Below are positions 3,890 to 49,969 of a stretch of DNA of 64,000 bases, in pieces. The translations under genes were made by a program, and so were the position numbers. The notes under the pieces were generated by a model, which worked only from the letters and a program-made list of their open reading frames with translations, ran no database searches and was not told the origin of the DNA. The stretch is from Deinococcales bacterium (GTDB lineage Bacteria; Deinococcota; Deinococci; Deinococcales; JAAFIG01). How positions within the stretch are numbered: the first letter of the stretch is position 1; the number at the start of each line of letters is the position of its first letter. The stretch lies in assembly GCA_043778225.1 (NCBI GenBank), contig JAYWGM010000094.1, forward strand, positions 1 to 64,000. Reading direction: 5' to 3'.

Positions 3890-3934
3890 TAGACTAATTT
3901 CTCTATCACAGCTTCTCTTCCGCTCGAACAGCCC

Positions 3935-4016: not shown

Positions 4017-4036
4017 GTAGCTCCTCTTCGATTTTG

Positions 4037-5070: not shown

Positions 5071-5177
5071 CACCAGCCAGCAACCCAATCTCAAGTCCAG
5101 CAAACAGAACAACCACCTCGTGAATTGGGTACACTTTCGTGGACATGAAGTTCGGTTTCAAATGGAAATCGGAGACT

Positions 5178-5531: not shown

Positions 5532-5578
5532 GGTACGAATTTATCAAAGAAAATCTCGTAAAGTACCCACTAAAACCA

Positions 5579-6394
5579 ATGCTAAACGTTCTAAACGTCT
5601 CAAAAAGCGGTTACTATGCGTGGCTAAACCGACCGAAAAGCAAGCAAAAACTCGAGAATGAAGAACTTGCTAAGAGCATTGAGGAGGTCTATAACGAGTC
5701 TCGAGGCAACTCTGGCAGTCTCAAAGTATTACATGGCTTGGAGGCTCGAGGAATCAAGGCTAGTCGTCCTCGGATAGCCAGGATCATGAAGGCTCGAGGG
5801 TGGAAAGGTAAATGTAAACGCAAATTCCGTGTAACAACAGATTCTAAGCATTCTCATGGGTATTTTGAGAATAAACTCAATCGTGCTTTTGGAGCAGAAA
5901 AACCAAATATGAAATGGGCATCGGACATTACTTACATTCCCACAAGTGAGGGTTGGTTATATCTTGCTGTGGTGCTGGACTTATTCTCGAGAAAAACTGT
6001 GGGCTGGGCAATGGGAACGAGTCTCGAGGCGAGTCTGCCAGTAAAAGCACTTGAGATGGCTCGAGTGAGTCGTAAACCAAGTGATGGACTGCTACATCAC
6101 TCTGACCGTGGCGTGCAATACGCTAGTCTCGAGTTCCAAACGGCTGTTGGTAAATTCAATGGAATCTCGAGTATGAGTAGAAAGGGGAATTGCTGGGATA
6201 ATGCTGTGGTAGAGAGTTTCTTTGGTACTTTGAAGCTCGAGTTAGGTTTAGATAAAGTTATTGGGTCTCGAGAAGTCACAAAAGCTGTGGTGTTCGAGTG
6301 GATTGAAGTGTTCTACAATCGTCAACGGCTGCACTCAACAAATGGAACTTGGGACAGCCTTTTAGATGATATTGCTGAGGATTGTTCCAAATGA
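5579..6394 (+). pseudogene. IS3 transposase OrfB (DDE), C-terminally truncated and fused to the tail of an unrelated gene
   Basis: WASDITY, HHSDRGVQY and GNCWDNAVVESFF motifs. After RLHST the sequence becomes NGTWDSLLDDIAEDCSK*. Confidence 0.85.
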
Positions 6395-6741
6395 AAAAGC
6401 GCCACAGGTATTTATTATCTTCTGTAGACTTCCTCAGAAAGAATGTCGTTATTTCACTGTTAGGTTTGCATTTTTTGCTGGGGATTGTAGTACAAGTAGT
6501 AGCCCTTGGATTTGATTTAGGCTATCAAATAAATGGTTTTTTTTTAAGTAAAGTCTTGATACCTACCTGTTTAATTCTTTGTGTTGTTACGATTTCTATC
6601 AGTATTTTCAGAAAGCGTTATTGGGGCATAGTGTACTCAGCCGTCTATTTCGTATTTAATTATTTTTTCTACATTTTAGTGTATCTATTTATCCTTTTAC
6701 CTATAGCCGCTATTCTGACCGAGTTGCAAAAGATATTTTGA
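6391..6741 (+). CDS. AT-rich multi-pass membrane protein, putative immunity protein
   Basis: ATG overlaps the preceding TGA (ATGA); 3-4 hydrophobic segments; low GC. Confidence 0.6.
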   Translation: MKKRHRYLLSSVDFLRKNVVISLLGLHFLLGIVVQVVALGFDLGYQINGFFLSKVLIPTCLILCVVTISISIFRKRYWGIVYSAVYFVFNYFFYILVYLFILLPIAAILTELQKIF

Positions 6742-6857
6742 TAAGCCACCCTTCATATCCAATCTGTCCTTCACATTTTTTTCCGCTCGAGCCTCTGGCT
6801 CTGCCCACGCTCGCTTGTGGCTAGGAAGGCGAAGGGCAAAAGGCAAAAGGCAAAAGT

Positions 6858-6883
6858 AAACCCCGCCATCTCGAGCGGGGTTT
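6858..6883 (-). terminator. Hairpin terminator downstream of Rpn gene 2
   Basis: AAACCCCGC-catctcga-GCGGGGTTT. Confidence 0.65.
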
Positions 6884-6899
6884 ACTTCTTTGGCGTTTT

Positions 6900-7787
6900 C
6901 TAAGAAATTCCGTTCTGCTCGAGTTCTTCCGTACTTAATCCTGTAATCGCCTGAATCTGTTCAAGTGTTAGTCCTGTGGCTTTTGAATTTCTCGCTACCT
7001 CGAGCTTGGCTTTTAGTTCTCCCTCGAGAATACCCGCTTCACGCCCTTTTGCTTCCCCTTCGAGAAGTCCTTCTTCTCTTGCCGATTTGAACGCCGAATA
7101 ATTATCCCGCAGACTTTTTAAGCTGTACTCATAGCTATCCCGTTCACTCGGCTCGAGATTCGCGTATTTGGCTGTTTCAAAGGCAGATAAAAAGGCTTCT
7201 TCTTTGAATAGTTCTGGAATTTGTTGCAAGTCCACTAAGTTCTTTAAGAAGTACAACCACTTATCTAGGCGGGTTTCTAATTGCTCGAGTGGCTTATCAA
7301 AATTTGGCATTTCAAGATAAATAAAAGTGAGTTTCTTGTAGAATACTTCATTGTTCTGGTCTTTGAGTTCAACCGTATGAACCACTTCGGTACGATTTGC
7401 TTTCTTATCATCGAAGGTAAAGCCTAAAACACCAACACAATACACGGGTTGAAGCAGGTAATCCCAGTCTCCTTTGGGTGCTTGGTCTTGAATTGGAAAC
7501 GTAGCATAGTAAAGTGTTCTATCCTTAAAGTTAATCTGTTTGACTTTTTGCAGTTCAACAATAAAATACTCACCATTTTTTCCACGGCAATAAATGTCGT
7601 AAACAGCTTTGCGTTCATCTTCGGAACGTGGGAGTTGCTCGAGATTCTTGAAACTCAAATCGGCTATTTTAGCATCATCTGGCAGCAGGGAATTGAGGAA
7701 ATCAATCAGATGAGGCTTACTGGCTTCCTCGCCGAAGATTTTTTTGAATCCAAAATCAGTAAATGGATTGATGAAGGTCGTAACCAT
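6900..7787 (-). CDS. Rpn family recombination-promoting nuclease / PD-(D/E)XK putative transposase, copy 2
   Basis: Same motifs as 4037-4888; identical N-terminal 36 aa and EELEQNGIS C-terminus. Confidence 0.92.
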   Translation of the reverse strand: MVTTFINPFTDFGFKKIFGEEASKPHLIDFLNSLLPDDAKIADLSFKNLEQLPRSEDERKAVYDIYCRGKNGEYFIVELQKVKQINFKDRTLYYATFPIQDQAPKGDWDYLLQPVYCVGVLGFTFDDKKANRTEVVHTVELKDQNNEVFYKKLTFIYLEMPNFDKPLEQLETRLDKWLYFLKNLVDLQQIPELFKEEAFLSAFETAKYANLEPSERDSYEYSLKSLRDNYSAFKSAREEGLLEGEAKGREAGILEGELKAKLEVARNSKATGLTLEQIQAITGLSTEELEQNGIS

Positions 7788-7969
7788 GCTATAATCGTAG
7801 CAGCCAGAAGCCTATTTTCCTAGAGTAAAAACGCTTACTCATCACCCCTCTAAGCACTCAAACAAGAATCACCACTGCCTCGAGCGTCACCAGCCCATCC
7901 TCGAGCAACCCAGCCCAGCCAGCCCCGTCGCCACCCCAACCACAGGAGTCTCGAGTCCAAGCACCCCAG
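7788..7969. repeat. Repeat C copy 2
   Basis: Near-identical to 4889-5070; linker-like sequence continues to about 8040. Confidence 0.9.
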
Positions 7970-8040
7970 CCACCAACCCAAGTATCCCCAACAACCCAGC
8001 CAGCCCCCAATCTCGAGTCCAAGCACTGGAATCACCCCCA

Positions 8041-8113
8041 GCGTATTCATTTCGGATTGATACCCTCTACCTCTGCTTTTGAAGCACTCGAGAACATCCG
8101 CAACAGCAACCCG
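8041..8113 (-). pseudogene. BrnA antitoxin gene fragment
   Basis: Reverse strand reads RVAVADVLECFKSRGRGYQSEMNT, closely matching RVDADVLEWFKSRGKGYQSEMNA of the gene at 20968-21255. Confidence 0.8.
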
Positions 8114-8127
8114 ATATACTAAAACCA

Positions 8128-8421
8128 ATGGAACTCGAGCTAAGCGGCGAACTTTGGTATTGGCGTGGACCTGCACCACATTACTTTATTATCGTGCCAG
8201 AAAAGCAATCTGTTGAATTAAAAGCTGCCTCAAAATTGGTGACTTATGGCTGGGGAATGATTCCAGTCAAAGCCCAAATTGGCAAAACCAGATGGAAAAC
8301 TTCTTTGTTTCCTAAAAATAACCTCTATCTTGTGCCAATCAAAAAAATTGTCCGAATCGCAGAAAATCTCGAGGAAGGCAACCTAGTGGCGGTACGCCTC
8401 GAGCTTGGCTTTTTGCCTTAG
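8128..8421 (+). CDS. DUF1905 domain protein
   Basis: LWYWRGPAPHYF...TYGWGMIPV...WKTSLFPK...YLVPIKK; TATACT 7 nt upstream of the ATG. Confidence 0.85.
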   Translation: MELELSGELWYWRGPAPHYFIIVPEKQSVELKAASKLVTYGWGMIPVKAQIGKTRWKTSLFPKNNLYLVPIKKIVRIAENLEEGNLVAVRLELGFLP

Positions 8422-8757
8422 TTCGGTGCTTTTTCTTGTTACCTCTAAGCCATTGACAACTGTGTTCTCGAGCTAAAAAAATCACTGTGATGAATTACAT
8501 TCTTGCCGTAGAGTAAGTGTCCAATTACAATTTGGCAGGCAATGTCCTCAGTCTATGTTCAGTTTTTCTACTATACTGCTGGCTATGGCTGAACGGGGGC
8601 TGTAGGCGTTTGCAATGGGATAACCAAGTCGAGCATTGGTCACGCCTTTAGAGGCTATATCACAAAGTTTAGAACCACCTCGAGCTAAGCTCGAGTGACT
8701 GTTTTTGTTGCTGTTTGCCTCTAAGCCGTTTTCCCCACCAAAATTATTGGAGTACCT

Positions 8758-10050
8758 ATGAAAAAATACTGGATTGCTGCCCCACTTGTTTTAAGTTTTG
8801 TTGCCCTGGCGCAAGGTGTGACCGTCGAGTTCTGGCACACCTTTGGCGATGCCAAGCGCAGTGGCTGGATTCAGGCTCGAGCCGACGAGTACAACAAAGC
8901 TAACCTAGGGCAAAAAATTGTTCCACTCTATAAAGGCAGTTCCGATGAGAGCCTGCAAGCGACCGTACTGGCAGCCCGTCAGGGTAAGCCTCCTGCGCTG
9001 TTGCAAGTCGAAGGGGTCAGCTCTCAATTGGCGCTCGATAGTGGGGTTTTTCAGTCGGTCAGCGCGATTAAGAACGTTGATTTTAGCGATTACATCAAGC
9101 CAGTGGTTAGTTATTACACGATTGGCGGCAAGGTCAACAGTATCCCGTTTAACAGCAGCAGCCCAGTGCTGTACTTTAATAAAGACTTGATGCTCAAAGC
9201 TGGCTTAGACCCTAAAAACCCGCCAACCACCTTTAGTGCCGTCTTCAAAACCTGTGCTACTTTCGATGCGGCTAAACTCGGCATCAAGTGTATGGCTTTA
9301 ACCCCGTTTAGTTGGCTATTTGAACAGTGGATGAGTCAGCAAAACGCGCAATTGCTCAATAACAGCAATGGTCGTCAAGACCGAGCCACCGCCACGAATA
9401 TAGACAGTCTGGCAGGACGCAAGATTTTTGAGTTTTATAAAGAATTAAATGACAAAGGCTACTTGACCAATACTGGAAAGTTAGCCGATACAGTCGGCAC
9501 AAACGCAATCTTTGGCAACCAAAAAGCACTGATGACCATTAACAGCACCGCCGGCTTGGGTAATTTACTCGATGCGGCTAAACAAAGTGGCTTCCAGATG
9601 GGTGTTGGCGTACTGCCGATTCCAAATGGCTCGAGCCGCAACGGTGTGATTATTGGCGGCGCAAGCCTTTGGGTAGCAAAAGCGGTCTCCAAGCCAGAAG
9701 CCGAAGCTGCCTTGGATTTTGCCCTTTTTATGACCAACACCGAAAATATGGCAAGCTGGCACAAGATAACCGGCTACTACCCAGTGCGAACCAGCACCGT
9801 GGCTTTGCTGCGTAAGCAAGGCTGGTTCTTAAATAATCCGCTTCAGATTGTGGCGTTTAATCAGTTACTCAACACCAAGCCAAACATCGCCAATGCTGGG
9901 GCGCTGACTGGGGCGAACCTACAAATGCGAGCCGTGATTGAGCAGAGCATCCAAAAAGTCCTGAGTGGTCAGGGTGTCGCCGATGTTGCCAAAACCGCCA
10001 ACGAACAGGTCAATGCAGCGCTGGTGGAGTACAACAAGAATTTTAAGTAA
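8758..10050 (+). CDS. ABC transporter substrate-binding protein (CUT1 / UgpB-like)
   Basis: Signal peptide, VEFWH, SIPFNSSSPVLYFNKD, IIGGASLW and TGYYP motifs. Confidence 0.9.
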   Translation: MKKYWIAAPLVLSFVALAQGVTVEFWHTFGDAKRSGWIQARADEYNKANLGQKIVPLYKGSSDESLQATVLAARQGKPPALLQVEGVSSQLALDSGVFQSVSAIKNVDFSDYIKPVVSYYTIGGKVNSIPFNSSSPVLYFNKDLMLKAGLDPKNPPTTFSAVFKTCATFDAAKLGIKCMALTPFSWLFEQWMSQQNAQLLNNSNGRQDRATATNIDSLAGRKIFEFYKELNDKGYLTNTGKLADTVGTNAIFGNQKALMTINSTAGLGNLLDAAKQSGFQMGVGVLPIPNGSSRNGVIIGGASLWVAKAVSKPEAEAALDFALFMTNTENMASWHKITGYYPVRTSTVALLRKQGWFLNNPLQIVAFNQLLNTKPNIANAGALTGANLQMRAVIEQSIQKVLSGQGVADVAKTANEQVNAALVEYNKNFK

Positions 10051-10108
10051 AGCAGAACAAAAGCCAAACCTCGAGCCATCTCGAGGTTCGTTTTGCCGGG
10101 GGAATGCC

Positions 10109-11083
10109 TTGAATGCAGTTCGACCAAACACCAAAGTAAAACGCAGCCGTCTGGCGACTCGAAAAAAGCTACCCAAGTCTAGTGGTGAACACGCCACCTT
10201 TCGCGGGCGCTGGTTGCCTTGGTTACTGTTGTTCCCAACCTTACTGATTCTCGGGGTATTCTCGTATTACCCAGCCGCTAAAACCTTGCGCCTGAGCGTT
10301 TTTCGATCCAATATCATTATTGGCAACGAGCAGTTTGTTGGATTCGAGAATTTCACGACGCTGCTCTCGAGTCGGGTTTATCACCAAGTGATTGTGCAGA
10401 CACTGGTCTTTGTTGGGCTGGTAGTGGTACTCGGGTTGGGTCTTGCTTTGGGGTTGGCGTGGTTAGCCAGTAAGCCGATTCCGGGCGCTCAATTCTACCG
10501 CCTGATGCTGATTTATCCGTATGCGCTGTCCCCAGCTATCGCTGGAACGCTGTGGTTATTTTTGTTCAATCCCGAAATTGGGGCAGTCAATAATCTTTTA
10601 GAGACGCTATTTGGCATCAAACCACGCTGGCTTGATAATCCATTTTTGACATTTGGACTGGTGGTCATGGCGACCATTTGGAAAGGGCTGGGCTACAACA
10701 TCGTCTTTTATTTAGCGGCAATCCAAAACCTGCCAAGTGAAGTCATGGAAGCCGCCGAGATTGATGGCGCGACCGCGTGGCAGCGTTTTTGGCACGTGGC
10801 ATTGCCGCTTTTGTCGCCGATGACTTTTTTTCTGATTTTTACCAATATTGTGGCTGCTTTATTCGACAGCTTTGGGTTGGTCAATATCCTGACTCGAGGT
10901 GGTCCGGTTTATGGCGAGACTGGCATCACGACTTTCTTGGTCTATCAGTTGTACGAGGATGGTTTTCGTAATTTCAAAACAGGTGCAGCCGCCACTCAAG
11001 CCGTGCTGATGCTGATGCTGGTGATGTGCCTGATTGTTTTGCAATTCAGATACGGCAACCGCAAGGTACATTATGGCGCTTAG
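10109..11083 (+). CDS. Carbohydrate ABC transporter permease (UgpA-like)
   Basis: FVGFENF and EAA loop EAAEIDGA; start placed at TTG 10109 after a G-rich RBS. Confidence 0.88.
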   Translation: MNAVRPNTKVKRSRLATRKKLPKSSGEHATFRGRWLPWLLLFPTLLILGVFSYYPAAKTLRLSVFRSNIIIGNEQFVGFENFTTLLSSRVYHQVIVQTLVFVGLVVVLGLGLALGLAWLASKPIPGAQFYRLMLIYPYALSPAIAGTLWLFLFNPEIGAVNNLLETLFGIKPRWLDNPFLTFGLVVMATIWKGLGYNIVFYLAAIQNLPSEVMEAAEIDGATAWQRFWHVALPLLSPMTFFLIFTNIVAALFDSFGLVNILTRGGPVYGETGITTFLVYQLYEDGFRNFKTGAAATQAVLMLMLVMCLIVLQFRYGNRKVHYGA

Positions 11084-11909
11084 GCGGCGAAACCGCCGCA
11101 AGCATGGCGGTTTTTGGACGCACTTGATTCTCAGTTTAGCAGTGCTGCTTGTGGCTTCGCCATTACTATTTGCATTGATTAAAGCCACCCAGACCAGCGC
11201 CCAAGTAACGGGTCCCAGCCTTGTGCCGGGCTTAAATTTGCTCGAGAATGCTCGAGCCGCTTGGGTTGGGGCTGGGCTGGGGCAGTATATGGTCAACAGC
11301 ACAATTGTGGCGGTCTGTGTGACCTTTGGTAAAACAGTGCTGTCGTTGCTGGCAGCGCTGGCGTTTGTCTACTTTAGATTTCCAATCAAAGGCTTGTTGT
11401 TTGCGTTGGTGCTGTTTGCCCTGACACTGCCAACCGAACTATTGATTGTGGCGTTGTTTGACTTGGTTTCGGGCGACCTCAAATGGGCAAACAGTTACGC
11501 TGCCATGGTTGTGCCGTTTATTGCCTCTGCCACTGGGGTGCTGCTGTTTCGCCAGCATTTTATGAACATCCCATCCAGTTTATCCGATGCTGCTCGGATA
11601 GATGGCGCAGGACCGCTGACATTTTTGATGAAAATCCTCGTTCCAATGAGCTGGAATACCGTTGGGGCGCTAACCGTAATCCAGTTTGTTTCGGCTTGGG
11701 ACCAATACCTCTGGCCTCTGGTGATTATGCAATCTGATAACAAACAAGTCATTCAGGTTGGACTAAGCCGACTGATTGACCTCGATTCGCAAGGCAACTG
11801 GGGGGCGGTCATGGCAGGAGCAATCCTAACGATTTTGCCGCCTGTTGTTGTTTTTACCTTACTTCAAGAGCAGTTCAGCAAAGGCTTTGCGCTTGGGCAG
11901 GACAAGTAG
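11073..11909 (+). CDS. Carbohydrate ABC transporter permease (UgpE-like)
   Basis: DAARIDGAG and WDQYLWPL motifs. Confidence 0.88.
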   Translation: MALRRRNRRKHGGFWTHLILSLAVLLVASPLLFALIKATQTSAQVTGPSLVPGLNLLENARAAWVGAGLGQYMVNSTIVAVCVTFGKTVLSLLAALAFVYFRFPIKGLLFALVLFALTLPTELLIVALFDLVSGDLKWANSYAAMVVPFIASATGVLLFRQHFMNIPSSLSDAARIDGAGPLTFLMKILVPMSWNTVGALTVIQFVSAWDQYLWPLVIMQSDNKQVIQVGLSRLIDLDSQGNWGAVMAGAILTILPPVVVFTLLQEQFSKGFALGQDK

Positions 11910-11924
11910 CTCGAGCTTGGTTGA

Positions 11925-13322
11925 TTATTCTTTACTGTAGGTCATCTCGAGTGGAATCACCCATTCGCTAAATTCCTCGTCGGTCACAAAGCCAAGTTTT
12001 AAGGCAGCTTGGCGCAGACTCAAACCTTCCTTGTGGGCTTTTTTGGCTATTGCGGCGGCTTTGTCGTAACCAATGTGGCGGTTTAGGGCTGTGACCTGCA
12101 TTAAATTTGTGCCAAGGTTCTGAGCGATTCTTTCTAAATTCGGCTCAATCCCAACCGCACAATTGTCGTTAAAACTAAGGCAAGCATCACCCAGCAAACT
12201 GATGCTCTCGAGGACGTTATGCACCATTACGGGCTTAAAGACATTGAGTTGAAAATTGCCTTGGCTACCCGCAAATGCCACCGTGGCATCGTTGCCAAAA
12301 ATTTGCGCCACGACCATTGTCATGGCTTCAGATTGGGTCGGGTTGACCTTACCGGGCATGATGGAGGAGCCGGGTTCATTTTCGGGAATATCAATTTCGC
12401 CAATCCCGTTGCGTGGTCCACTTGCCAACCAACGCACATCATTTGCCATTTTCATCAAAGCCCCAGCCAGTGTTCGTAAGCTGCTCGAGGTCGTGACCAG
12501 CGCATCGTGTGCCGAGAGTGCCGCAAATTTATTGGCGGCAGAAGTAAATGGCAAGCCCGTAATTCTGGCAATTTTAGCGGCGGCTAAATCACCAAATTTT
12601 GGATGGGCATTTAAGCCTGTGCCAACTGCTGTTCCACCGATGGCAAGTTCGTATAACCCAAGTTCGGCATGGCGCACTTGCCCCAGACAAAAATCGATTT
12701 GCGCCACCCAGCCGCCAATTTCTTGCCCCAGTGTAATCGGCGTGGCATCCTGCAAATGGGTGCGCCCGACCTTAACGATACTCGAGAATTCTTCGGCTTT
12801 TTTGTGCAGCGTATCGCGCAGCCGCAAAACTTTTGGATAGAGTTGGCGGTGCAGTTCCTCGACCACGGCAATGTGCATCGCGGTTGGAAAGGTATCGTTG
12901 CTGCTTTGACCACGGTTGACATGATCGTTTGGGTGAACAGGTTTTTTGCTGCCAAGTTGTCCGCCAGCCAGCGCAATGGCGCGGTTAGAAATCACTTCGT
13001 TGGCATTCATGTTGCTTTGTGTTCCCGAACCAGTCTGCCAAACGACCAATGGAAAATGGCTATCGAGGCTGCCATCAATCACTTCATCGGCGGCTCGAGC
13101 CACCAAATCGGCAATATCTGGTGGCAACTGTCCAAGTTCGGCATTGGCAAGCGCGGCGGCTTTTTTGAGGATGCCAAGGGCGCGAATAATCGCCCGACCC
13201 CAAATAAAACGGTCGCGTCCAATCGGGAAATTTTCGATACTGCGTTGGGTTTGTGCGCCCCAGTAACGGCTTGAGTCTACATTTAGAGCGCCCATTGAAT
13301 CGGTTTCGGTGCGGGTTATCAT
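11925..13322 (-). CDS. fumC: Class II fumarate hydratase
   Basis: [22 protein letters not shown] and [13 protein letters not shown] signature. Confidence 0.97.
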
Positions 13323-13381
13323 GTTTTCTATTTTATCACTGCTTTTTAGGCAACTGCTACCAATATCTGATATACTACTTT

Positions 13382-14038
13382 ATGCCAGTCCCCGAAGCGC
13401 TGCCGCTCGAGAAGCGTCTGTTTAGACAAGATGTTTACCAGACCATTAAAAACTGGATTATAGACGGTACACTCGAGCCACTCGAGAAAATCCGTGATGC
13501 CGATTTGGCGCTACAACTCGGAGTCAGCCGCACTCCAATTCGTGAAGCGCTGCGTCAACTCGAGGACGAAAAACTGATTGAGACCAAAAGCAATGCCTGG
13601 ACTCGAGTGACGGGTGTGGACACCAGCCTTGCTAGGCGGGTTTACCCAATTTTACGGGTTCTCGAGCCTTTGGCATTAGAACTGGGCTTTATGAATCTCG
13701 AGCCACATAATTTTATCGCCATGAAAGCCCTGAACATTGCCGTGCAGCAGCATTTAGAAACCACCAATCCCAAAGCTGCGGCGCTCGAGGATACGGCGCT
13801 GCACAGCCTTTGGACTGGGCGCTGCCAAAATCCAGAATTGCTGCGTATTTTAGCCGACTTAAAAACCAATCATATTCGGCTCGAGATTCATTATTGGCGT
13901 GGTGGAAATACTGCCAAAAAAAGCGTCAGAGAACACCAAAAAATCATTGCGGCACTCGAGAAGAAAGACATAGAACTTGCCAAACGCGAACTCGAGGCGC
14001 ATTGGACTCGAGCCTTGGCACGTTGGGAAGCTAGATGA
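13382..14038 (+). CDS. GntR family (FCD) transcriptional regulator
   Basis: LALQLGVSRTPIREAL HTH; EHQKII in the FCD domain. Confidence 0.92.
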   Translation: MPVPEALPLEKRLFRQDVYQTIKNWIIDGTLEPLEKIRDADLALQLGVSRTPIREALRQLEDEKLIETKSNAWTRVTGVDTSLARRVYPILRVLEPLALELGFMNLEPHNFIAMKALNIAVQQHLETTNPKAAALEDTALHSLWTGRCQNPELLRILADLKTNHIRLEIHYWRGGNTAKKSVREHQKIIAALEKKDIELAKRELEAHWTRALARWEAR

Positions 14039-14913
14039 AAAGCTGGTTGATTCGACTTGCACCATTTGTTTTTGTGCTTCTTTGGAGTACGGGATATATT
14101 GGGGCTAAATTTGGCTTGCCTTATATTGAACCGTTTACTTTTCTTTTTATTCGCTTAATCGTTGCAATGGTCTTGCTGGCTGTTCTTGCCGCAGTCTTGC
14201 GTCAACGTTGGTTAGAAAAACTCGAATGGCAACACGCAAGTATAGCTGGATTGCTGTTACACGCAGGGTACTTGGGGGGTGTCTTTAGCGCCATTAAACT
14301 TGGTATGCCTGCTGGTCTAAGTGCCATCATTGTGAATTTACAACCTGTTCTGACCTCAAGCTTTGCCGCTTTTTTATTAAAAGAAAAAATTACACAACGC
14401 CAATGGCTGGGCTTAATTCTTGGTTTTATTGGAGTTGCCTTGGCAATTCTTGAAAAAACGACTGGTATCTTCCACGAGAATATTCCTATTTGGGGCATAA
14501 TTGCTGCTTTTATTGCCTTATTCTCGAGTACCTTTGGTACGATTTACCAAAAAAGATTTGCACAAAATATCCCACTTTTAACTGGAACAGCCGTTCAATA
14601 CGCCGCTTCGAGCTTAGTGTTTTTAATCGCTGCTTTGGCATTTGAAAAACGAATAATAATTTGGAATACAACACTATTGTGGACGATGCTTTGGTTTATT
14701 GTGATTATTTCACTTGGCGCAATTCTACTTTTACTTTGGTTGATTCGCCAAAATAGCACCACTCAAGTCTCGAGTTTATTTTACTTAGTGCCACCATTCA
14801 CTGCCCTCGAAGCCTACTTATTATTTGGTGAACAACTAGGAATTTTAGCAATTCTTGGACTTGCTTTGACCATGTTTGGAGTTGGTTTGGTTGTTACAGA
14901 AGGGAAACCATGA
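14035..14913 (+). CDS. DMT/EamA family transporter
   Basis: FVLLWSTGYIGAK start, about 10 TM segments, SLFYLVPP. Confidence 0.9.
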   Translation: MKSWLIRLAPFVFVLLWSTGYIGAKFGLPYIEPFTFLFIRLIVAMVLLAVLAAVLRQRWLEKLEWQHASIAGLLLHAGYLGGVFSAIKLGMPAGLSAIIVNLQPVLTSSFAAFLLKEKITQRQWLGLILGFIGVALAILEKTTGIFHENIPIWGIIAAFIALFSSTFGTIYQKRFAQNIPLLTGTAVQYAASSLVFLIAALAFEKRIIIWNTTLLWTMLWFIVIISLGAILLLLWLIRQNSTTQVSSLFYLVPPFTALEAYLLFGEQLGILAILGLALTMFGVGLVVTEGKP

Positions 14914-16076
14914 ACATTCGAGACAGCATCACCACCAGTACCGTCTTGGCTGGGATTTTAATTGTGATTGTTGGTTTTACAGGTTCGTTGGTTTTAACCT
15001 TTGATGTGGCTGATAAAGCCAATTTAACAAGTGCTGAACTGAGTTCTTGGGTTTGGTCTATCTGTGTTGGCAGTGGAATTTTGAGTTTGAGTTTATCGTG
15101 GTGGTACAAACAACCAGTCTTGGCAGCTTGGAATACCCCCGGATTGGCGCTTTTGGCAACCAGCCTTGGCAAGTACCCACTTTCGGATGCGGTTGGTGTT
15201 TATATTGTTTCTGGTGTACTGATTGCGCTTTTAGGGGCATTTGGTTGGTTTGATAAGGTCATGAAACTCGTACCGCAAAATGTGGCATTGGCGGTGCTGG
15301 CAGGAGCGCTTTTTAAGTTTGGCTTAGGCTTATTTACTGCCGCAACGCTCGAGCCAGCCTTGGTGCTGATGATGATTGCAGTATTTTTAGTGGCAAAATT
15401 TTTGAAATCTCGAGTCCCGATGCTTTGGGCATTGGTGGTTGGTTTCTCGAGTGCCGCATTGCTGAATAAATTCAGTTTAGTAGGCATCAATCTCGAGTTG
15501 GCAATGCCGATATTGATTGCTCCAACTTTTCATCTCGAGGCACTAATTGGGCTAGGGCTTCCCCTAACTGCCTTGGCGCTGGCTTCGCAGAATGCCCCCG
15601 GATTGGCGGTGATGCGTTCCTTTGGCTATGAGCCGCCAACCAAAGGCGCATTGGTCAGCACAGGACTGCTGAGTGCCTTATTGTCCCCGATGCTGTGTCA
15701 TGGTATAACACTGGCAGCCATCACTGCTGCGCTTGGTAACAGCCCCGAAGCTCACCCAGACCCCAAGAAACGGTATGGCGCGGGTATTGTGGCGGGTGTC
15801 CTCAAAATCGTTTTGGGGTTATTTGGCACAACCATCGTGGCGCTTTTTTTGGCACTGCCTAAACCACTTGTGGCTGGCATGGCTGGGCTGGCACTCTCTG
15901 GCACAATTGCCAGTTGTCTCGAGGGCGCATTTGGGGGCAGCAACCGCCGCGACTCGAGTATTTTTGCACTCTTAATCACCGCTTCTGGCGCAGAATTTCT
16001 TGGCTTAGGCAGTGCCTTTTGGGGCTTACTGATTGGTGCTTTGGTAGCAGGAATCCTTGAGCGCCAAAAGTTATAA
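14910..16076 (+). CDS. benE: BenE family benzoate/H+ symporter-like transporter
   Basis: PVLAAWNTPG, ASQNAPG, LAAITAA and GSAFWGL motifs. Confidence 0.85.
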   Translation: MNIRDSITTSTVLAGILIVIVGFTGSLVLTFDVADKANLTSAELSSWVWSICVGSGILSLSLSWWYKQPVLAAWNTPGLALLATSLGKYPLSDAVGVYIVSGVLIALLGAFGWFDKVMKLVPQNVALAVLAGALFKFGLGLFTAATLEPALVLMMIAVFLVAKFLKSRVPMLWALVVGFSSAALLNKFSLVGINLELAMPILIAPTFHLEALIGLGLPLTALALASQNAPGLAVMRSFGYEPPTKGALVSTGLLSALLSPMLCHGITLAAITAALGNSPEAHPDPKKRYGAGIVAGVLKIVLGLFGTTIVALFLALPKPLVAGMAGLALSGTIASCLEGAFGGSNRRDSSIFALLITASGAEFLGLGSAFWGLLIGALVAGILERQKL

Positions 16077-16144
16077 TTTCATGAATACTGAGATTGCTAA
16101 ACAATTTTTAGCCCTCGAGCAGATACAACAAAGCCTGAAATAAA

Positions 16145-17389
16145 TTATTTAGAAAGTTGACTCGAGGGGATGACTTCAAAGGTTTTTTGTCCATGACTAA
16201 GGTTATGCGTAAATTTAAGTACCACAATGTTGCTGGCTGCACCAGCTTGAGTGGTTTTTAATTCGCGTAAGTCGTTAGCAAAGCCTAAAGTTTTAGCTGA
16301 ACTTGGGTACTCGAGTGTGCCATCAGCTTGAACTTCGGTAAAGTAAGCTCGGTAGCCAACAGGTATTTCTTGTTTCTTCTCGAGAAATTCAAAAGTATAG
16401 GCTCTTTCTAAGCTGGCTATGGCTACGATACGCCCAGCCGGTAAGTTGGTTTGAATGGTGTGGGTGTAGTCCCGAAAAAAGGGTTTAATTGAATTGGGTA
16501 GGGTATCTATGATGGCTGCTGAATCTGTCATTAAATTATCGTTGTCTGTCCAGCCACCCAATAAGACTTGGAAACGCTGATAAAGAACAGATGGATACCA
16601 TACTGCTCCAGCAACTGGTTGTTCTTTTGTGCCAATGGTAAATCGGATTCCAGCGTACCGAATAACAGGATTATTCCACCCTGACATGGTGACTTCACCA
16701 CCAGCTTCACGTATCGCATCGGTTAGACTTCCAGCGTAAGCGTAATCTCCAATGAATGGAACAAGTTCGGTTTGACCATTGGGTAAAAGCATTTTCATGT
16801 TCTTTTGTGTGGTCAGGCGTGCTGAGCCACCTTTTGGGAAAAATATTTGTAATTGGGTGTATTTTTGTATTTCGGGTTGACGGGTCATGCCATTGATGAA
16901 TTTAGTTTCGATTTCTTTGCTTTCAAATTTTACTCCTTGAGGCTCGAGTACCGCCTTGAGGCTTTCCACACTAATCCAAGACCCATAACATCCTAGATTG
17001 GGGATGGTTTGACCTGAAGGTGTTTGGAGGTCAATCATGATTTGCTGGGTTTCTAAGCATTGTTTTACTGGTAAACGCTCTAAAACTGTAATCTGTGCGC
17101 TCGAGACACTGAGCATGGCTATTGCGCCGGCTGCCACAATTGTTAAAAATCCTGATATTTTGAATACGTTTGGCATGGTGTGAACTCCTATCATTCCTGC
17201 TCGAATGGTTTTGGCATCGCCAAGTTCTTCTAGTGTGCGAGCCACGGCGTGTTCATGCGGTATTCCAGCTATTTCGTGCTTGTGCGCCCGCTCGAGAATG
17301 TGCGCGGTAAGTTCTTCGCGTATCTCGAGTTTCTTCTTGCCCCACAGCCCTTTGGTGGCTTGGCTCAGGTATTTCTCGAGGACGTTCAT
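16145..17389 (-). CDS. Permease-prefix (HAAS-like) domain membrane protein with extracytoplasmic domain
   Basis: YLSQATKGL...EIREELTAHI...ELGD N-terminus, then one TM; coupled to PadR. Confidence 0.75.
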   Translation of the reverse strand: MNVLEKYLSQATKGLWGKKKLEIREELTAHILERAHKHEIAGIPHEHAVARTLEELGDAKTIRAGMIGVHTMPNVFKISGFLTIVAAGAIAMLSVSSAQITVLERLPVKQCLETQQIMIDLQTPSGQTIPNLGCYGSWISVESLKAVLEPQGVKFESKEIETKFINGMTRQPEIQKYTQLQIFFPKGGSARLTTQKNMKMLLPNGQTELVPFIGDYAYAGSLTDAIREAGGEVTMSGWNNPVIRYAGIRFTIGTKEQPVAGAVWYPSVLYQRFQVLLGGWTDNDNLMTDSAAIIDTLPNSIKPFFRDYTHTIQTNLPAGRIVAIASLERAYTFEFLEKKQEIPVGYRAYFTEVQADGTLEYPSSAKTLGFANDLRELKTTQAGAASNIVVLKFTHNLSHGQKTFEVIPSSQLSK

Positions 17390-17727
17390 GTTGCACCGCC
17401 GCGCAGGGCTTCGATGGCTTGGTTAAAGCGTTTCCACTCGAGGCGTTTTTGGGCTAGGGTTTTGTTACCTTTGTCGGTTAGGCGGTAGTATTTGCGTTTT
17501 GGTCCGCCTGTGGTGCTGTCCATGAATTCGGCAGCTAATAACCCCTGTTGCTCGAGTCGGTGTAGGGCTGGGTAAAGGCTACCTTCCTTAAAGTCAAAGT
17601 AACCTTCGGTGCGGTGTTGGGCTTCGTTAATGATTTCAAGTCCGTACATTGGGTTTGGCTCGAGAATCTCGAGCAGAATCAGGTCTAAGTTGCCTTTGAG
17701 TAAATTTGCATCTGGTTTCATATCCAC
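17386..17727 (-). CDS. PadR family transcriptional regulator
   Basis: LKGNLDLILL, MYGLEI, EGSLYPALHRLE and RKYYRLT. Confidence 0.93.
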   Translation of the reverse strand: MDMKPDANLLKGNLDLILLEILEPNPMYGLEIINEAQHRTEGYFDFKEGSLYPALHRLEQQGLLAAEFMDSTTGGPKRKYYRLTDKGNKTLAQKRLEWKRFNQAIEALRGGAT

Positions 17728-17814
17728 CTCGAGTACCTAGGATAAGTACATAGTAAACCTATATACGAATTTGTCAAGCGACGACCCTCCTCCGAGCAGC
17801 CATCTTGAAGGCTG

Positions 17815-18165
17815 TTAGACCGATTCTAATAAAATCGGCATTGACAATTGGTACAACTCGAGCGCCACCAACACAGCCACCAGCAAAATCGGGTCTGGTC
17901 GCTCGAGAATCATGGCTTTGGGGGCTGTGCCAAGCCGAATGGCTTCTAGCAAGACACTTGAACTGCTGCTTGAGCCTTTGGTATAGGGCATCCGCACAAT
18001 TTTATTGCTTAGGCAGATGCCAAAACTTGGGTGTCGGGCATCAATAATTATTCCCGTAGCGCTGTCTAAACCACCCCAAAAAGAAAGAGGTTCGATAGAG
18101 ATTAGCTGACCCTCAATCGTGGTTGTTTTCTGGTTCAAAAGGTCAATCCCAGAAATTCGGGTCAT
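17815..18165 (-). CDS. Aconitase X swivel subunit (DUF126)
   Basis: PLSFWGGLD...GIIID..HP and KGSSSSSSVL; start set at MTRISG. Confidence 0.85.
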   Translation of the reverse strand: MTRISGIDLLNQKTTTIEGQLISIEPLSFWGGLDSATGIIIDARHPSFGICLSNKIVRMPYTKGSSSSSSVLLEAIRLGTAPKAMILERPDPILLVAVLVALELYQLSMPILLESV

Positions 18166-19393
18166 GCCACACCTCCCCGCGCACTGCTGATTGAACACAC
18201 TCGAGGGTGCTGCCAAAGGCAATCCCGATGCCGAGATTGGCTGGGGCGTAATATGCCATTTTGGCACTCGAGGTCATGACCACCTTGGCGGTTTTTTCTA
18301 GAATTGGCGCGAGGTAAACACAAGTATCAAGAATTAAAACAATGCCCGATGCAAGCAATGGCTCGAGTAAACCTTGCTGCTCGAGTTGGCTTTTGACATA
18401 GCGGTTGGTGTTGACAAAAAAATCGGTTTGTAGCTTTTGACCACGCAGCAACTCGAGCAGCCGTATAAATTCATCGAGCGAATAATGTGGTGTCCCCAAA
18501 CTGACCGCATCAAGCCGCGTGCCAACAGCCATGGTACTCAGTTCGGCTCGAGCTTGCTGCAACATCTGGCGACTGACTTTGACTTGGCGTAGCGGTGCTT
18601 GGTGCTGCAATGCCACCTCGAGACTGGGGGCTTCTGGGGTGATACCAACGGCGTGAAACATCGCCACCGCGCCACTTGAAGCGGCGGCTGCCCCAAAGGT
18701 TTTTAAGTCATCTGGACGGGTTTGTAAAGGTAAACCATGTAGCACTGGAATTTGGTCTCCACAATCCAGACCAACAAAATGACCCAACACAGCATAGGTG
18801 CTGTTGTCCTCAAACCAAGCAGTCTCGAGATGATAAACAATTTGTCCACGGCGATTTTCTGGGCAGTGCAAACCAACATAAGGCACACGAGCCGTCAGGG
18901 CAGCACAGATGTCAGTAAAATCGCCATAGCGGTTGGTACGCGCTCCCAAAAGCGAATTGGCAAAAACAATCGCATTTGATTCTGCCCAAGCGATTTGTTG
19001 ACCCAAATGCGGCTGACTGGGCAGTTGATACGGCGCACAAGTCCAAGTGGCATCGCAACCCAAGTCCAAATAGGCTTGCATTTGTTGCTCCATGGCGAGT
19101 CTGGTTTCTTCTGGGTAACGGTTGCGCTCTGGGTGCAAGAGATTGAGCGAAGCGACATTGAGGGTGGTCGGGATAGCCACTTTTGCCCCGAGGTTTTTTA
19201 AGTGCAGCACAAAGTCAAGGCTGGCTTGCCCGTGGTATAAACAGCCATCAATATGGGCTTGGCAAATTGGCTCGAGTCGAGTTGCCCCGAGCGTCTCGGC
19301 AAGTCGGCAGATTAAGCCCATCGCAAATGCCACTCCAGCCCCCTGTGCGCCATCGAGCATGGCTTGTTCATATGGCTCGAGATAGAAGCTCAT
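18143..19393 (-). CDS. Aconitase X catalytic subunit (DUF521)
   Basis: AHIDGCLY, TCAPY, WAESNA..FANS..GARTNR, LGTPH, DTC and SAKMAYY. Confidence 0.9.
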   Translation of the reverse strand: MSFYLEPYEQAMLDGAQGAGVAFAMGLICRLAETLGATRLEPICQAHIDGCLYHGQASLDFVLHLKNLGAKVAIPTTLNVASLNLLHPERNRYPEETRLAMEQQMQAYLDLGCDATWTCAPYQLPSQPHLGQQIAWAESNAIVFANSLLGARTNRYGDFTDICAALTARVPYVGLHCPENRRGQIVYHLETAWFEDNSTYAVLGHFVGLDCGDQIPVLHGLPLQTRPDDLKTFGAAAASSGAVAMFHAVGITPEAPSLEVALQHQAPLRQVKVSRQMLQQARAELSTMAVGTRLDAVSLGTPHYSLDEFIRLLELLRGQKLQTDFFVNTNRYVKSQLEQQGLLEPLLASGIVLILDTCVYLAPILEKTAKVVMTSSAKMAYYAPANLGIGIAFGSTLECVQSAVRGEVWHDPNFWD

Positions 19394-19598
19394 GATGAAT
19401 TCTAACAGTTTTTCTTGACTTCTCAGTAGCTCCTCGTGTAGCCTCGAGTTATGCAGCCCCCACAAATCACACTTCATGCTGCGGTTCGCGTCAAGCGCTC
19501 TAAAGCTGGCTAGAGAAAAGGTTAAAAAGTCAAAAGGTTAAAGGGTGAATTCACTTTCTCTTTTTCTCTATACTCGAGTTTTTTCTTGTGGGGTTTCT

Positions 19599-20810
19599 AT
19601 GCGTGTTTTATTGATTGGTGCGGGTGGCGTTGGTGGAGCGTTTGCAATTATTGCGGCGCGGCGGCAGTTTATTTCTAAGTTAATTGTGGCAGATTTTAAT
19701 TTGAGCAAAGCCCAAGTCGTGGCGGCAGATGCGGCTCGAGATGGTTTAGACAGCACCGCCGAAACCATCGATGCCAGTTCGTTTGAAAGTGTGCTGGCAG
19801 TGGCACAAAAACACAAGGTAGATGCGATTGTTAATCTCTGCGCCCCACTTTTTAATCCACCAATTTTTAGGGCAGCCTTTGAACTGGGGATTGTTTATTT
19901 GGATACCGCCGCCAACCTTTCAGAGCCGCATCCAACGGACCCATTTCATCAGCTTGGCAAAACGCTTGGTATTGACCAATTTGCAGCGCACGAGGCTTGG
20001 GTGGCTCGAGGGGCGCTCGGCATCACCAGCATTGGCGTTGAACCGGGCTTATCGGATGTCTTTGCACGCTATGCCGCCGACCATCTCTTCTCGAGCATCG
20101 AAGAAATAGGGGTACGAGACGGTGGAAATTTAACCATCGATGGCTTTGCTTTTGCGCCGACTTTTAACATCTGGACAATGCTCGAAGAATGCCTCAATCC
20201 ACCGATTCACTACGACAAAAAACGTGGCTGGTACACCTCTGAACCGATGAGCCACCTCGAGCTTTTTGATTTCCCCGCCGGTATTGGGTTGCTCGAGTGT
20301 GTGGCAGTCGAACACGAAGAAGTGTTGTTTATTCCGCGTTATATCGACGTGGAGCGCGTGAGCTTTAAGTATGGACTAGGCGCAGAATTTGTCGAGGTGC
20401 TAAAAACTTTGCACAAACTGGGCTTAGATTCGACCAAGAAAATTCAGTTTGATCATTTTGCAATTTCGCCACGCGATTTTGTGGCGGCTGCCCTGCCCGA
20501 CCCTGCCAAGTTGGGGAGCAGAATGCACGGCATCACCTGTGCCGGAACGCTGGTCAAAGGGATTGGTAAAAATGGGTTGCCTCGAGAAACTTACCTTTAT
20601 CATATCGCCGATAATGCCATCACCATGCGCGAGTACGGCTGCCAAGCGGTGGTTTGGCAAACCGCGATTAACCCAGTGATTGCGCTCGAGTTAATTTTTA
20701 ATGGCGCATGGCGTGGAACGGGTGTCTACTGTCCAGAGCATTTTGAGGCTCTGCCGTTCCTCGAGTTACTATCAGCTTACGGTGCGCCGCATCAAATTCA
20801 GGAACGCTAA
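19599..20810 (+). CDS. Saccharopine dehydrogenase family protein
   Basis: Rossmann IGAGGVG, GVEPGLSDVF and VEHEEV. Confidence 0.88.
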   Translation: MRVLLIGAGGVGGAFAIIAARRQFISKLIVADFNLSKAQVVAADAARDGLDSTAETIDASSFESVLAVAQKHKVDAIVNLCAPLFNPPIFRAAFELGIVYLDTAANLSEPHPTDPFHQLGKTLGIDQFAAHEAWVARGALGITSIGVEPGLSDVFARYAADHLFSSIEEIGVRDGGNLTIDGFAFAPTFNIWTMLEECLNPPIHYDKKRGWYTSEPMSHLELFDFPAGIGLLECVAVEHEEVLFIPRYIDVERVSFKYGLGAEFVEVLKTLHKLGLDSTKKIQFDHFAISPRDFVAAALPDPAKLGSRMHGITCAGTLVKGIGKNGLPRETYLYHIADNAITMREYGCQAVVWQTAINPVIALELIFNGAWRGTGVYCPEHFEALPFLELLSAYGAPHQIQER

Positions 20811-20861
20811 TACTGTAGCGACGAAGCGTTGCTCGAGACAGCATAAGCGTTTTTGCTCTAG

Positions 20862-21005
20862 GAAAAAACAATCAACATTGCATTTTTACGTAGTCGAGTC
20901 GTAACCATTATCTGCGCTCCTCAACTTAAAAGCACTCGAATTATCAGCATGAGAAAGGCGACTATTGATGAAGAAAAACTCCTCTTTGCCCAAATACAAC
21001 TCTAA
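20862..21005 (+). pseudogene. BrnT toxin remnant (5'-truncated)
   Basis: Frame encodes ...TRIISMRKATIDEEKL, the BrnT-type RIISxRKA motif, and overlaps brnA. In-frame TAG at 20859, no start codon. Confidence 0.65.
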
Positions 21006-21255
21006 GACCGATTGGACTCGAGTAGATGCCATGACCCCAACTCAAATAGACTTGAGTGATAACCCAGAAATGACCCCAGAATTATTTGCAACTGGAGTCT
21101 TAAAGCGTGGTGGGCTGGTGGTCGCTCGTCCTAAAGAACTGATTAGTCTGCGGGTGGATGCGGATGTTCTTGAGTGGTTCAAAAGCCGAGGTAAAGGTTA
21201 TCAATCCGAAATGAATGCGTTGCTTAAAGCCTACAAAGAAGTTCATACAAGCTAA
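20968..21255 (+). CDS. brnA: BrnA antitoxin family protein
   Basis: TDWTRV and ISLRVDADVLEWFKSRGKGYQSEMNALL. Confidence 0.88.
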   Translation: MKKNSSLPKYNSKTDWTRVDAMTPTQIDLSDNPEMTPELFATGVLKRGGLVVARPKELISLRVDADVLEWFKSRGKGYQSEMNALLKAYKEVHTS

Positions 21256-21285
21256 CTCGAGCAGCACAACGCCATCTACAAAAAA

Positions 21286-21312
21286 GCTCGAGCCAAAGCA
21301 GTTGGCTCGAGC
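21286..21312. terminator. Hairpin between convergent brnA and ftsZ, built from two CTCGAG
   Basis: GCTCGAGCCAA-agcag-TTGGCTCGAGC with a flanking A-tract on the left and a T-rich tract on the right. Confidence 0.65.
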
Positions 21313-21326
21313 CTCTTATTTTTGGT

Positions 21327-22412
21327 TTACCTTTTATTATCTTTATCCTGCCAACGCAAAAAGGTTGGAATCTCGTAAATGTCTGGTGAACTGTTCGGGT
21401 TGGGTATGACAGAAAATGGCTGGGTGAGCGGTGATTGCTGCCCGTTGCGAATAAAGTTGCCTAAACCGGGGGTGTCGTTAAAGCCGCTTGCCACCACTGT
21501 GACACGGATTTCATCGCCAGCGTTTTCGTCGTATGCCACACCAAACAGCACTTCGACGGTGTTTTGGTCAAAGCCAGTGGCTTCGGTAATCCGATTGACA
21601 ATTTCGTAGGTGTCTGAAAGCGTGACTTTTTCTTCGTGTCCCGTGATGTTAATTAAAATCTTTTTTGCACCTTCTATCGAGCGCTCGAGCAACGGCGAAT
21701 GAATCGCGCTCTTGACGGCATCTTCGATTAAGTTGTCGCCGTGTCCAGCCCCAATCCCCATCAGCACACTGCCCGCGTCTTTAAGTTGATTTTTGACATC
21801 GGCAAAGTCCACATTAATCATGCCGCTCGAGTTAATCACATCCGAAATACCTTTGATGCCAAAGTACAACACGCGGTCTGCCATTAAAAAAGCGTCTTTG
21901 AGCGATACTTTTTTGTCGGCGGCTTGAATCAGTTTTTCGTTGTTGACAATAATCATGCCATCCACGCGCTCGGAAAGTTTTTTGATGCCTTCTTCGGCAA
22001 CTCGCAAACGCTTGGGTCCTTCAAAACGAAATGGTCGGGTGACAATGGCGACCGTCAAAATACCCATTTCTCGAGCAATTTCGGCAACCACAGGAGCGCT
22101 GCCCGTACCCGTGCCGCCACCCATACCAGCCGTGATAAAGACCAAATCGGTATCTGCCAGATGTTCTTTGATGGTTTCGCGGTCTTCCTCGGCGGCTTTT
22201 TCGCCAACTTCTGGGTCTGCGCCCGCCCCTAAGCCTCGAGTAATTCTGTCGCCCATTTGAATGCGGTACTCTGCATGGCTTTTAGAAAGCACTTGTGCGT
22301 CGGTGTTGCCCGCGATAAATTCCACACCGTCCAAACCATTTTCGATCATGCGATTGACAGCGTTGTTTCCAGCGCCACCTAAGCCGATCACCCGAATTTT
22401 TGCTCCTAGCAC
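21327..22412 (-). CDS. ftsZ: Cell division protein FtsZ
   Basis: [19 protein letters not shown] and INVDFAD. Confidence 0.98.
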
Positions 22413-22468
22413 GATACGCCTCCCGAGCGCATCGAAGCGCGGGTTGAAATTTGAGTAGAAAAAACCAT

Positions 22469-49968: not shown

Positions 49969-49969
49969 G

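Follow-up and report, generated by a model that had tools for sequence, protein, structure and literature searches.

The DNA analysed here, hereafter the window, consists of the 64,000 nucleotides at positions 1 to 64,000 of contig JAYWGM010000094.1 from a Deinococcales bacterium (assembly GCA_043778225.1), and is studded with the six-base palindrome CTCGAG. The word occurs 452 times, as opposed to the 9.24 copies expected from 100 dinucleotide-preserving shuffles (standard deviation 2.9, maximum 20). Attention was drawn to it by a 657-bp gene for a GntR-family regulator (Table 1), in which all 12 sites counted by the original prediction were located: ten lie in frame 0, where CTC-GAG spells ten of the 12 Leu-Glu pairs of the protein, two in frame 1 (Thr-Arg) and none in frame 2. 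At 18.3 sites/kb this gene is among the six densest of 3,500 crude open reading frames (ORFs; the longest non-overlapping ones of at least 100 amino acids, which make up 89% of the genome). About 3.6 genes of such density would be expected under a Poisson distribution, so that the gene represents the upper tail of the distribution and serves as an example rather than as a special locus.

Three AT-rich ORFs had been named as poor in or devoid of the word, and indeed contain neither CTCGAG nor TCGA at a GC content of 31-37%; the coordinates given for two of them stand, while the one placed at 6391-6741 in fact spans 6382-6741. The three hairpin stems said to be formed by CTCGAG copies are real and rank within the top five terminator-like stems of positions 8000-22000. 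The repeats of the window, which the word was thought to anchor, do include copies of it, as is to be expected with one site per 142 bases.

Table 1. CTCGAG and related features of the window.
Feature	Positions	Strand	CTCGAG	Remarks
CTCGAG field	1..64000		452 sites, 1 per 142 bases	Subset of 24,877 genome-wide
GntR-family regulator gene	13382..14038	+	12	Ten sites in frame 0, two in frame 1
AT-rich ORF	3392..3889	+	0	GC 36.5%, no Pfam family; likely recent acquisition
AT-rich ORF	6382..6741	+	0	GC ~33%, no Pfam family
AT-rich ORF	45373..45780	-	0	GC 30.6%, no Pfam family
Terminator-like hairpin	8679..8695	+	Both arms are copies	Followed by T-run
Terminator-like hairpin	10065..10090	-	Two copies	11 pairs
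Terminator-like hairpin	21286..21312	+	Two copies	11 pairs; best of the region

Abundance of CTCGAG in the Genome

The genome to which the window belongs (G000; 4.03 Mb in 107 contigs, 89% complete, 48.7% GC) contains 24,877 CTCGAG sites, corresponding to 6.17 per kb (6,174 per Mb) or about one per 160 bases, which makes the word the commonest hexamer of the genome by threefold. The zero-order expectation amounts to about 931 sites, i.e. one per 4.3 kb, in agreement with the one per 4-5 kb assumed at the outset, and is exceeded 27-fold; compared with a second-order Markov model derived from sequence in which the motif was masked, the word is 70 times too frequent. Densities lie between 4.0 and 7.1 sites/kb on each contig listed, and no extended consensus surrounds the word, the flanking positions being near background, which indicates that CTCGAG is not a dispersed repeat of the type of repetitive extragenic palindromes or miniature inverted-repeat transposable elements. 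Among the contexts of the word the eight-base palindrome CCTCGAGG is under-represented, with 243 copies compared with about 1,100-2,200 for other flank pairs.

The density in coding DNA (6.17/kb) equals that in the remaining DNA (6.23/kb), and within the crude gene set 13,058, 4,465 and 4,632 sites fall in frames 0, 1 and 2, respectively. A shuffle of synonymous codons within genes, which retains the already inflated codon usage and dipeptides, leaves about 1,640, 407 and 330 sites, an enrichment of 8-, 11- and 14-fold, whereas a shuffle of codon order leaves about 660, 217 and 175, so that the observed numbers are 20-26 times higher. Frame 0 (Leu-Glu) thereby holds 59% of the coding sites, as would be expected if the word were a by-product of codon-pair or dipeptide usage, a possibility to which a dispersed repeat family and assembly artefacts may be added. 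However, frames 1 and 2 and the non-coding DNA are as strongly enriched, and where they are not part of the motif, CTC and GAG serve as minority codons (9% and 23%); 69.0% of the 18,912 Leu-Glu pairs are nevertheless written CTC-GAG, as against 2.1% predicted from codon use outside that context. In addition, the flanks lack a consensus, and the trait recurs at orthologous positions and in 19 assemblies, of which G013 is a single-contig chromosome, so that explanations of this kind are excluded with near certainty. The enrichment persists after codon correction in all three frames and operates at the level of DNA rather than of codons or peptides.

The proteins have changed accordingly: Leu-Glu is the most over-represented dipeptide, with an observed/expected ratio (O/E) of 2.32 as opposed to 0.96 for Glu-Leu, and in alignments of the division cluster it occurs 17.0 times per 1000 residues in G000 compared with 7.4 in the Deinococcus orthologues. 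Opposite 179 CTCGAG-coded Leu-Glu pairs, these orthologues have Leu-Glu in 37 cases, only the Leu in 71, only the Glu in 28 and neither in 41, counts that are not independent because one region is set against seven outgroup loci. The motif bias has thus been strong enough to double the Leu-Glu content of proteins. The tRNA genes carry 1.1 CTCGAG/kb (six sites in 68 tRNAs); in one cluster of G000 (C19:9937-12769) each of four genes (Ser, Cys, Glu, Met) has a CTCGAG, out of six of the 68 tRNAs genome-wide.

Spacing of the Sites and Imported DNA

The gaps between successive sites are distributed near-exponentially (mean 161 bases, coefficient of variation 1.00), with a deficit of gaps below 20 bases and 19 gaps above 1.5 kb where 2.2 are expected; the 30 motif-free gaps of at least 1.3 kb are mostly AT-rich. 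The variance/mean ratio of site counts is 0.77-0.88 in intervals of 250-1000 bases with native GC and 1.3-1.6 at 5-20 kb, resembling that of other frequent hexamers. Neither even spacing nor saturation is seen in the dispersion at scales up to 20 kb, even at 6-10 sites/kb, and the placement of the sites comes close to that of random events independent of one another. In non-coding DNA, close pairs (separated by 7-30 bases) are found at 1.55 times the share of this DNA, 402 of 2,382 pairs lying in 10.9% of the genome.

The proposal that the word separates native from acquired DNA holds when corrected for composition: O/E is 25-27 in genes of at least 40% GC, 19 at 36-40%, 6.6 at 32-36% and 3.1 below 32%, so that the 42 genes below 36% GC retain an O/E of only 3-7. 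The AT-rich, motif-poor DNA was probably imported. An AT-rich islet elsewhere in the genome (C92:60296-63236, GC ~37%), in which a motif-free stretch of 1.4 kb adjoins the gene of a 501-residue methylase of the gamma class, is probably a recently acquired restriction-modification unit.

Conservation of Sites and Comparison With Known Palindromes

Codon-level alignments of window genes with 23 loci around ftsA, covering one region of about 20 kb, revealed that the positions of the sites are conserved. In the five closest loci (L001-L004 and L012) 59-67% of the CTCGAG sites are shared, compared with 18-40% identity for other hexamers (61% versus 27% in L003 and 59% versus 18.5% in L004), while the values for L005 are lower (37.5% versus 16%). 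Other genera of the same family share 18-30% of the sites versus 8-15% of other hexamers, and Deinococcus and other outgroups 0-6% versus 3-6%. CTCGAG positions are therefore kept two to three times better than those of other hexamers, as is characteristic of highly iterated palindromes (HIPs). Since the density remains constant while positions change, sites must be both protected and replaced. Among variants differing at one position, the transition neighbours reach 1.8-2.3 times background and the transversion neighbours 0.6-1.5 times, a pattern to be expected if they derive by decay from a large stock of perfect sites. Where close pairs of loci do not share a site, they differ mostly at two to four positions, but a reading in terms of multi-base events was rejected, since at 76% nucleotide identity the synonymous positions are already close to saturation. 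A metagenome scan for near-identical strains, which would allow gains and losses to be polarised, returned nothing closer than 72% FtsA identity.

HIPs are palindromes over-represented 15-300-fold with hundreds to thousands of copies per Mb, and CTCGAG falls within these ranges. The type example is HIP1 (GCGATCGC), to which GGCGCC, GCsGC and rCCGGy are added as alternate cyanobacterial HIPs by Elhai (2015; PMC4390886). Like HIP1, CTCGAG is palindromic, short and GC-rich, exceeds its expected frequency by a factor of tens, occurs in every frame as well as between genes, is conserved at orthologous positions, clade-wide and scarce in foreign DNA; the HIP1-like behaviour originally proposed is thereby supported, and CTCGAG is a true HIP of a Deinococcota lineage. 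Unlike HIP1, it belongs to another phylum, has another sequence and comprises only six bases, with no extension of the motif found. It is also denser, at 6,174 per Mb compared with the 300-2,700 per Mb stated for HIP1 and about 500-2,500 for most alternate HIPs, rCCGGy being given as higher (Elhai, 2015; PMC4390886). Furthermore, no co-distributed methyltransferase was found for CTCGAG, and its arrangement is near-Poisson at the scales of up to 20 kb covered in the 107-contig assembly. For HIP1, Xu et al. (2018; PMC5861425) describe a periodic distribution with periods of 10-90 kb. A dedicated literature search, outside the coverage of which subscription journals lie, yielded no report of CTCGAG hyper-abundance in Deinococcota among its top-ranked matches, the nearest being the methylome study of Blow et al. 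(2016).

Distribution Among the Deinococcota

A pattern scan of 364 Deinococcota genomes for CTCGAG and the control word GAGCTC (including one unpublished row, G325, on which nothing stated here depends) shows that the enrichment is a graded trait. All 19 genomes of the family of G000, from five genera, have 4.3-6.8 sites/kb. The single-contig chromosome G013 of this family was included in frame tests on samples of further genomes (G013, G151, G186, G025 and G173); it has 4.9 sites/kb, with 213, 79 and 87 sites in frames 0, 1 and 2 compared with 60, 4.4 and 8.4 after shuffling. The trait is absent from the 111 genomes of a large Deinococcus-like genus (g7; 0.01-0.36/kb), and in 32 genomes of a Thermus-like genus (g9) CTCGAG is as frequent as the control word (about 0.6-1.6/kb). 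Intermediate values are found in 33 genomes of three Meiothermus-like genera (g13, g23, g24), with 1.4-3.5/kb and a control word that is 5-40 times rarer, in several genera of family f2 (2-2.8/kb) and in G032 (3.6/kb). The trait is thus clade-wide with secondary loss, as illustrated by genus g19, where G149 and G150 are rich (8.6 and 7.0/kb) and G151 is poor (0.3/kb). The proteins encoded by seven division-cluster genes of G150 and G151 are about 60% identical, but these genes contain 52 and 3 CTCGAG sites, respectively. In the sample of G151 used for the frame tests, the counts equal the synonymous shuffle.

The frame tests also covered three genomes that we read as cultured Thermaceae, namely G186 (Meiothermus ruber), G025 (Marinithermus hydrothermalis) and G173 (Meiothermus silvanus). 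G186, with 2.2 sites/kb, has 263, 32 and 24 sites in the three frames compared with 91, 3.4 and 9.1 in the synonymous shuffle; the corresponding values are 199, 25 and 27 versus 122, 5.8 and 4.0 for G025 (3.4/kb) and 133, 15 and 25 versus 53, 2.0 and 5.4 for G173 (2.45/kb). This indicates that the phenomenon also exists, in weaker form, in cultured Thermaceae. The highest densities, 8.4-10.3/kb at 60% GC, were seen in metagenome contigs L318-L321 from a further uncultured lineage, the FtsA of which is 55% identical to that of the window. Among the matches listed from a search of viral contigs for triple CTCGAG clusters, no phage resembling the family of G000 was recognised, and the dense matches were high-GC contigs with equal GAGCTC.

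CTCGAG as a Possible Uptake Signal

A motif of this kind could act as a self-signal for DNA uptake or recombination, such that CTCGAG-rich DNA would be preferred in transformation and the word spread by molecular drive, which is a sufficient explanation for motifs such as the DNA uptake sequences (DUS) of Neisseriaceae and the uptake signal sequences (USS) of Pasteurellaceae. Like these, CTCGAG occurs genome-wide regardless of frame, influences peptides, contributes to terminator hairpins, as its close pairs in non-coding DNA do, and is rare in imported DNA. However, DUS and USS comprise 9-12 bases, are non-palindromic and occur evenly spaced about once per kb, whereas CTCGAG is a six-base palindrome with 6.2 sites/kb, the counts of which have a variance/mean ratio close to 1. 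The 6-10 sites/kb of the rich genomes are thus far above known uptake sequences (about 1/kb), and one more site on a fragment already carrying 30 should hardly matter. A six-base word would moreover discriminate only about 25-fold, no even spacing is seen up to 20 kb, and the density within genes equals that between them. To our knowledge, no uptake specificity is known in Deinococcota.

The machinery does not separate the models either. Of the 26 genomes examined, 24 have genes of the ComEC family and 23 have secretin genes, G000 having both, and the misses all concern assemblies that are 57-82% complete; since both are also present in the motif-poor G151, their presence does not discriminate. 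An uptake role has recently been proposed for HIP1, which is correlated with genes for pili and competence, whereas methylases do not reach significance (PMC13756078). On balance, we regard an uptake signal as an unlikely origin of the CTCGAG sites.

Methyltransferases and Restriction

Elhai (2015; PMC4390886) associates frequent HIPs with a methyltransferase of matching specificity, and in the methylation-linked model an orphan CTCGAG methyltransferase would mark the sites while methyl-directed repair would create and keep them. Enzymes of this specificity exist in the phylum: Blow et al. (2016; PMC4752239) describe orphan type II N6-methyladenine (m6A) CTCGAG methylases without a cognate endonuclease (M.Mru1279II, M.Mch9957IV and M.Mhy14884I), with activity in Marinithermus hydrothermalis (Marky_0034; methylation detected at 94.6% of CTCGAG sites), Meiothermus chliarophilus (94.1%) and Meiothermus ruber (Mrub_2385; 99.5%), as well as a Nocardia orphan with CTCGAG clusters at dnaA. 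In the same study, five methylated motifs determined by sequencing of single molecules in real time (SMRT) are given for Meiothermus silvanus DSM 9946, none of them CTCGAG (Blow et al., 2016; PMC4752239). The genomes that match the cultured strains carry 2.2-3.4 CTCGAG/kb in all frames. G025 has its sole PF07669 gene at 34.6 kb, and the three PF07669 genes of G186 are placed as expected for Mrub_0441, Mrub_1239 and Mrub_2385. Between the CTCGAG enzymes of G025 and G186, the two proven ones that were located, identity is only 29% across some 220 residues, so that different methylases could replace one another (non-orthologous replacement); the specificity of a methylase is not evident from its sequence. 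G000 itself has at least 20 DNA methyltransferase genes, comprising five of the C5 type, about five N4/N6 beta, three D12, three type I and about eight gamma, IIG or ISP genes; at least two of the C5 genes adjoin endonuclease genes.

The word targeted by these orphan enzymes is thus the same, and cultured members of the phylum over-represent it as well, but the distribution of methylases does not follow the motif. G000 has no orthologue of the three presumed CTCGAG enzymes in tblastn searches (best match 23% identity). The enzyme family of G186 is represented by full-length matches of at least 47% identity in 5 of 26 genomes of g13 (one with an internal stop), with a further one split in two, and in two of three genomes of g24, with fragments in the third; it was found in none of the four genomes of g23 and none of the 19 of the family of G000, yet it is present in g40, where CTCGAG reaches only 0.7-0.9/kb. 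When all loci that Pfam searches assigned to the C5, beta, gamma or D12 methylases were compared by BLAST, no orthologue emerged that is common to G000, G015, G150 and G032, and likewise no C5 methylase common to the motif-rich genomes was found. The three methylase loci found in G032, which is 96% complete, all sit in DNA of 0.3-0.8 sites/kb, compared with 3.6-3.8/kb elsewhere in that genome. G151 has essentially no C5, beta, gamma or D12 methylase loci. The TaqI-like methylase C65 of G000 (650 residues, with a TaqI_C domain) was rejected as the cognate enzyme, being present in 3 of 19 genomes of the family.

G173, the genome read as Meiothermus silvanus, is enriched sevenfold in all frames, as strongly as G186, despite the lack of SMRT-detected CTCGAG methylation in that species. 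Very-short-patch repair by Vsr at Dcm sites raises CCWGG in Escherichia coli and offers a precedent for a sequence-specific repair bias that enriches the target word of a methylase; it acts on T:G mismatches at one position with a small effect. By contrast, all six positions of CTCGAG are driven, and Vsr (PF03852) was not found in G000. The expectation of a cognate orphan methyltransferase has thus not been borne out in the methylase searches of G000 and its relatives, none tracking the word, nor has that of a methylation-driven signal, given the enrichment of G173 and the failure to find Vsr. The known m6A methylases of the cultured relatives look like passengers rather than drivers, and methylation as the source of the sites appears quite unlikely. 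An XhoI-family endonuclease (PF04555) gave no match in G000, as was also the case in the control search of all genomes.

Other words are avoided in the genome. G000 shows extreme palindrome avoidance, which the counts in the window mirror, with 30 of the 64 six-base palindromes at no more than 36 copies in 4 Mb (AGGCCT 1, GACGTC 1, GGGCCC 1, GGCGCC 3); GGCC occurs 131 and GATC 2,061 times. Palindromes are likewise nearly lacking in L318-L321, where, however, GGCC has a normal frequency. The scarcity of GAGCTC was considered as a counterpart of CTCGAG abundance and is instead part of an avoidance of GDGCHC, with 20 copies of GAGCAC, 30 of GAGCCC and 24 of GAGCTC versus 2,090 of GAGCGC; as a consequence, CTCGAGCTCGAG never occurs. 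Avoidance of this kind is typically associated with restriction systems of the SduI/Bsp1286I type and probably reflects ordinary restriction.

Selection or Biased Fixation

Direct selection on each site or on their sum, for a function at the level of the chromosome such as nucleoid organisation or a self-marker against a nuclease, has a precedent in the selection argued for HIP1 by Xu et al. (2018; PMC5861425). Positional conservation two to three times above other hexamers and the persistence of the trait across the whole family and beyond are in line with it. However, the spread of the sites is Poisson-like with no preference for intergenic or other locations, selection on each of 25,000 sites would impose a considerable load, and G151, the Deinococcus-like genus and the Thermus-like genus have lost the trait with no evident consequence. 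We therefore consider direct selection improbable.

The explanation that we place first, if tentatively and with somewhat less than even confidence, is biased mismatch correction or gene conversion by a factor recognising CTCGAG, because the sites behave as if independent of one another, remain unsaturated at 6-10/kb and are equally dense within and outside genes. The pattern would result from a weak fixation bias per site toward the perfect hexamer. In a stationary model of mutation bias and drift in which only the perfect word is favoured, 4Ne*s would be about ln(27) to ln(70), i.e. 3.3-4.2, a value deduced from the model rather than measured. The bias would most likely arise from sequence-specific mismatch correction or gene conversion in heteroduplex DNA, with a dimeric factor that recognises CTCGAG favouring the strand with the perfect site, whichever of the six positions is mismatched. 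We infer that the driving factor would be neither a conserved orphan methyltransferase nor a canonical Vsr. One specific and rather doubtful form of the idea is that Deinococcota carry a “motif-writing” repair system, in which a CTCGAG-specific, restriction-enzyme-like mismatch nickase would convert near-cognate heteroduplex to the perfect palindrome.

Several points weigh against biased repair. No candidate enzyme emerged among the searches made, and the repair step itself is pure inference. A similar positional conservation is taken as an argument for selection on HIP1 and not for biased repair by Xu et al. (2018; PMC5861425), and weak selection and fixation bias are inseparable with present data. 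Site sharing between distant lineages could reflect convergence at conserved Leu-Glu positions. CTCGAG may carry 5-methylcytosine, both here and in the cultured strains, as SMRT sequencing detects this modification poorly, and the assignment of G025, G186 and G173 to cultured species is our own deduction. Finally, with ORFs of at least 100 residues the “non-coding” fraction includes short genes, and as G000 is 89% complete, absences of genes from it mean “not found.”

Further Repeats in the Window

A tandem array at 49848-49991 consists of about five 24-base units, four of which contain CTCGAG. A segmental duplication with a spacing of about 2.9 kb links 1050-1114 to 3935-3999 and 4254-4937 to 7153-7836; it holds one stretch of 65 identical bases and two 300-base stretches of 70-79% identity, which suggests that the genes involved are paralogous copies. 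Short arrays of a T-rich unit of 8 bases (CCTTTTAA or CCCTTTGA) are found at 24560-24595, 26944-26987, 36467-36502 and 58130-58165, of which at least the first two lie directly upstream of minus-strand genes; on the gene strand these arrays read as repeated AAAGG-like words, possibly with a ribosome-binding or regulatory role.

Implications

For thirty years HIPs have lacked an explanation, and a single phylum has served for their study; the Deinococcota add a second in which the phenomenon is more extreme. They offer contrasts that the cyanobacteria lack, namely a graded series from no enrichment to 10 sites/kb, close relatives with and without the trait, and culturable strains of Meiothermus and Marinithermus whose methylomes are published, all sites being methylated in one strain and no methylated site being detected in another. 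These contrasts permit direct tests of the methylation, repair and uptake models. In these genomes, the density of CTCGAG can also be used as a flag for imported DNA. If the mismatch nickase suggested above proved true, it would be the first molecular explanation of HIPs, and Meiothermus would be a tractable model in which to study it.

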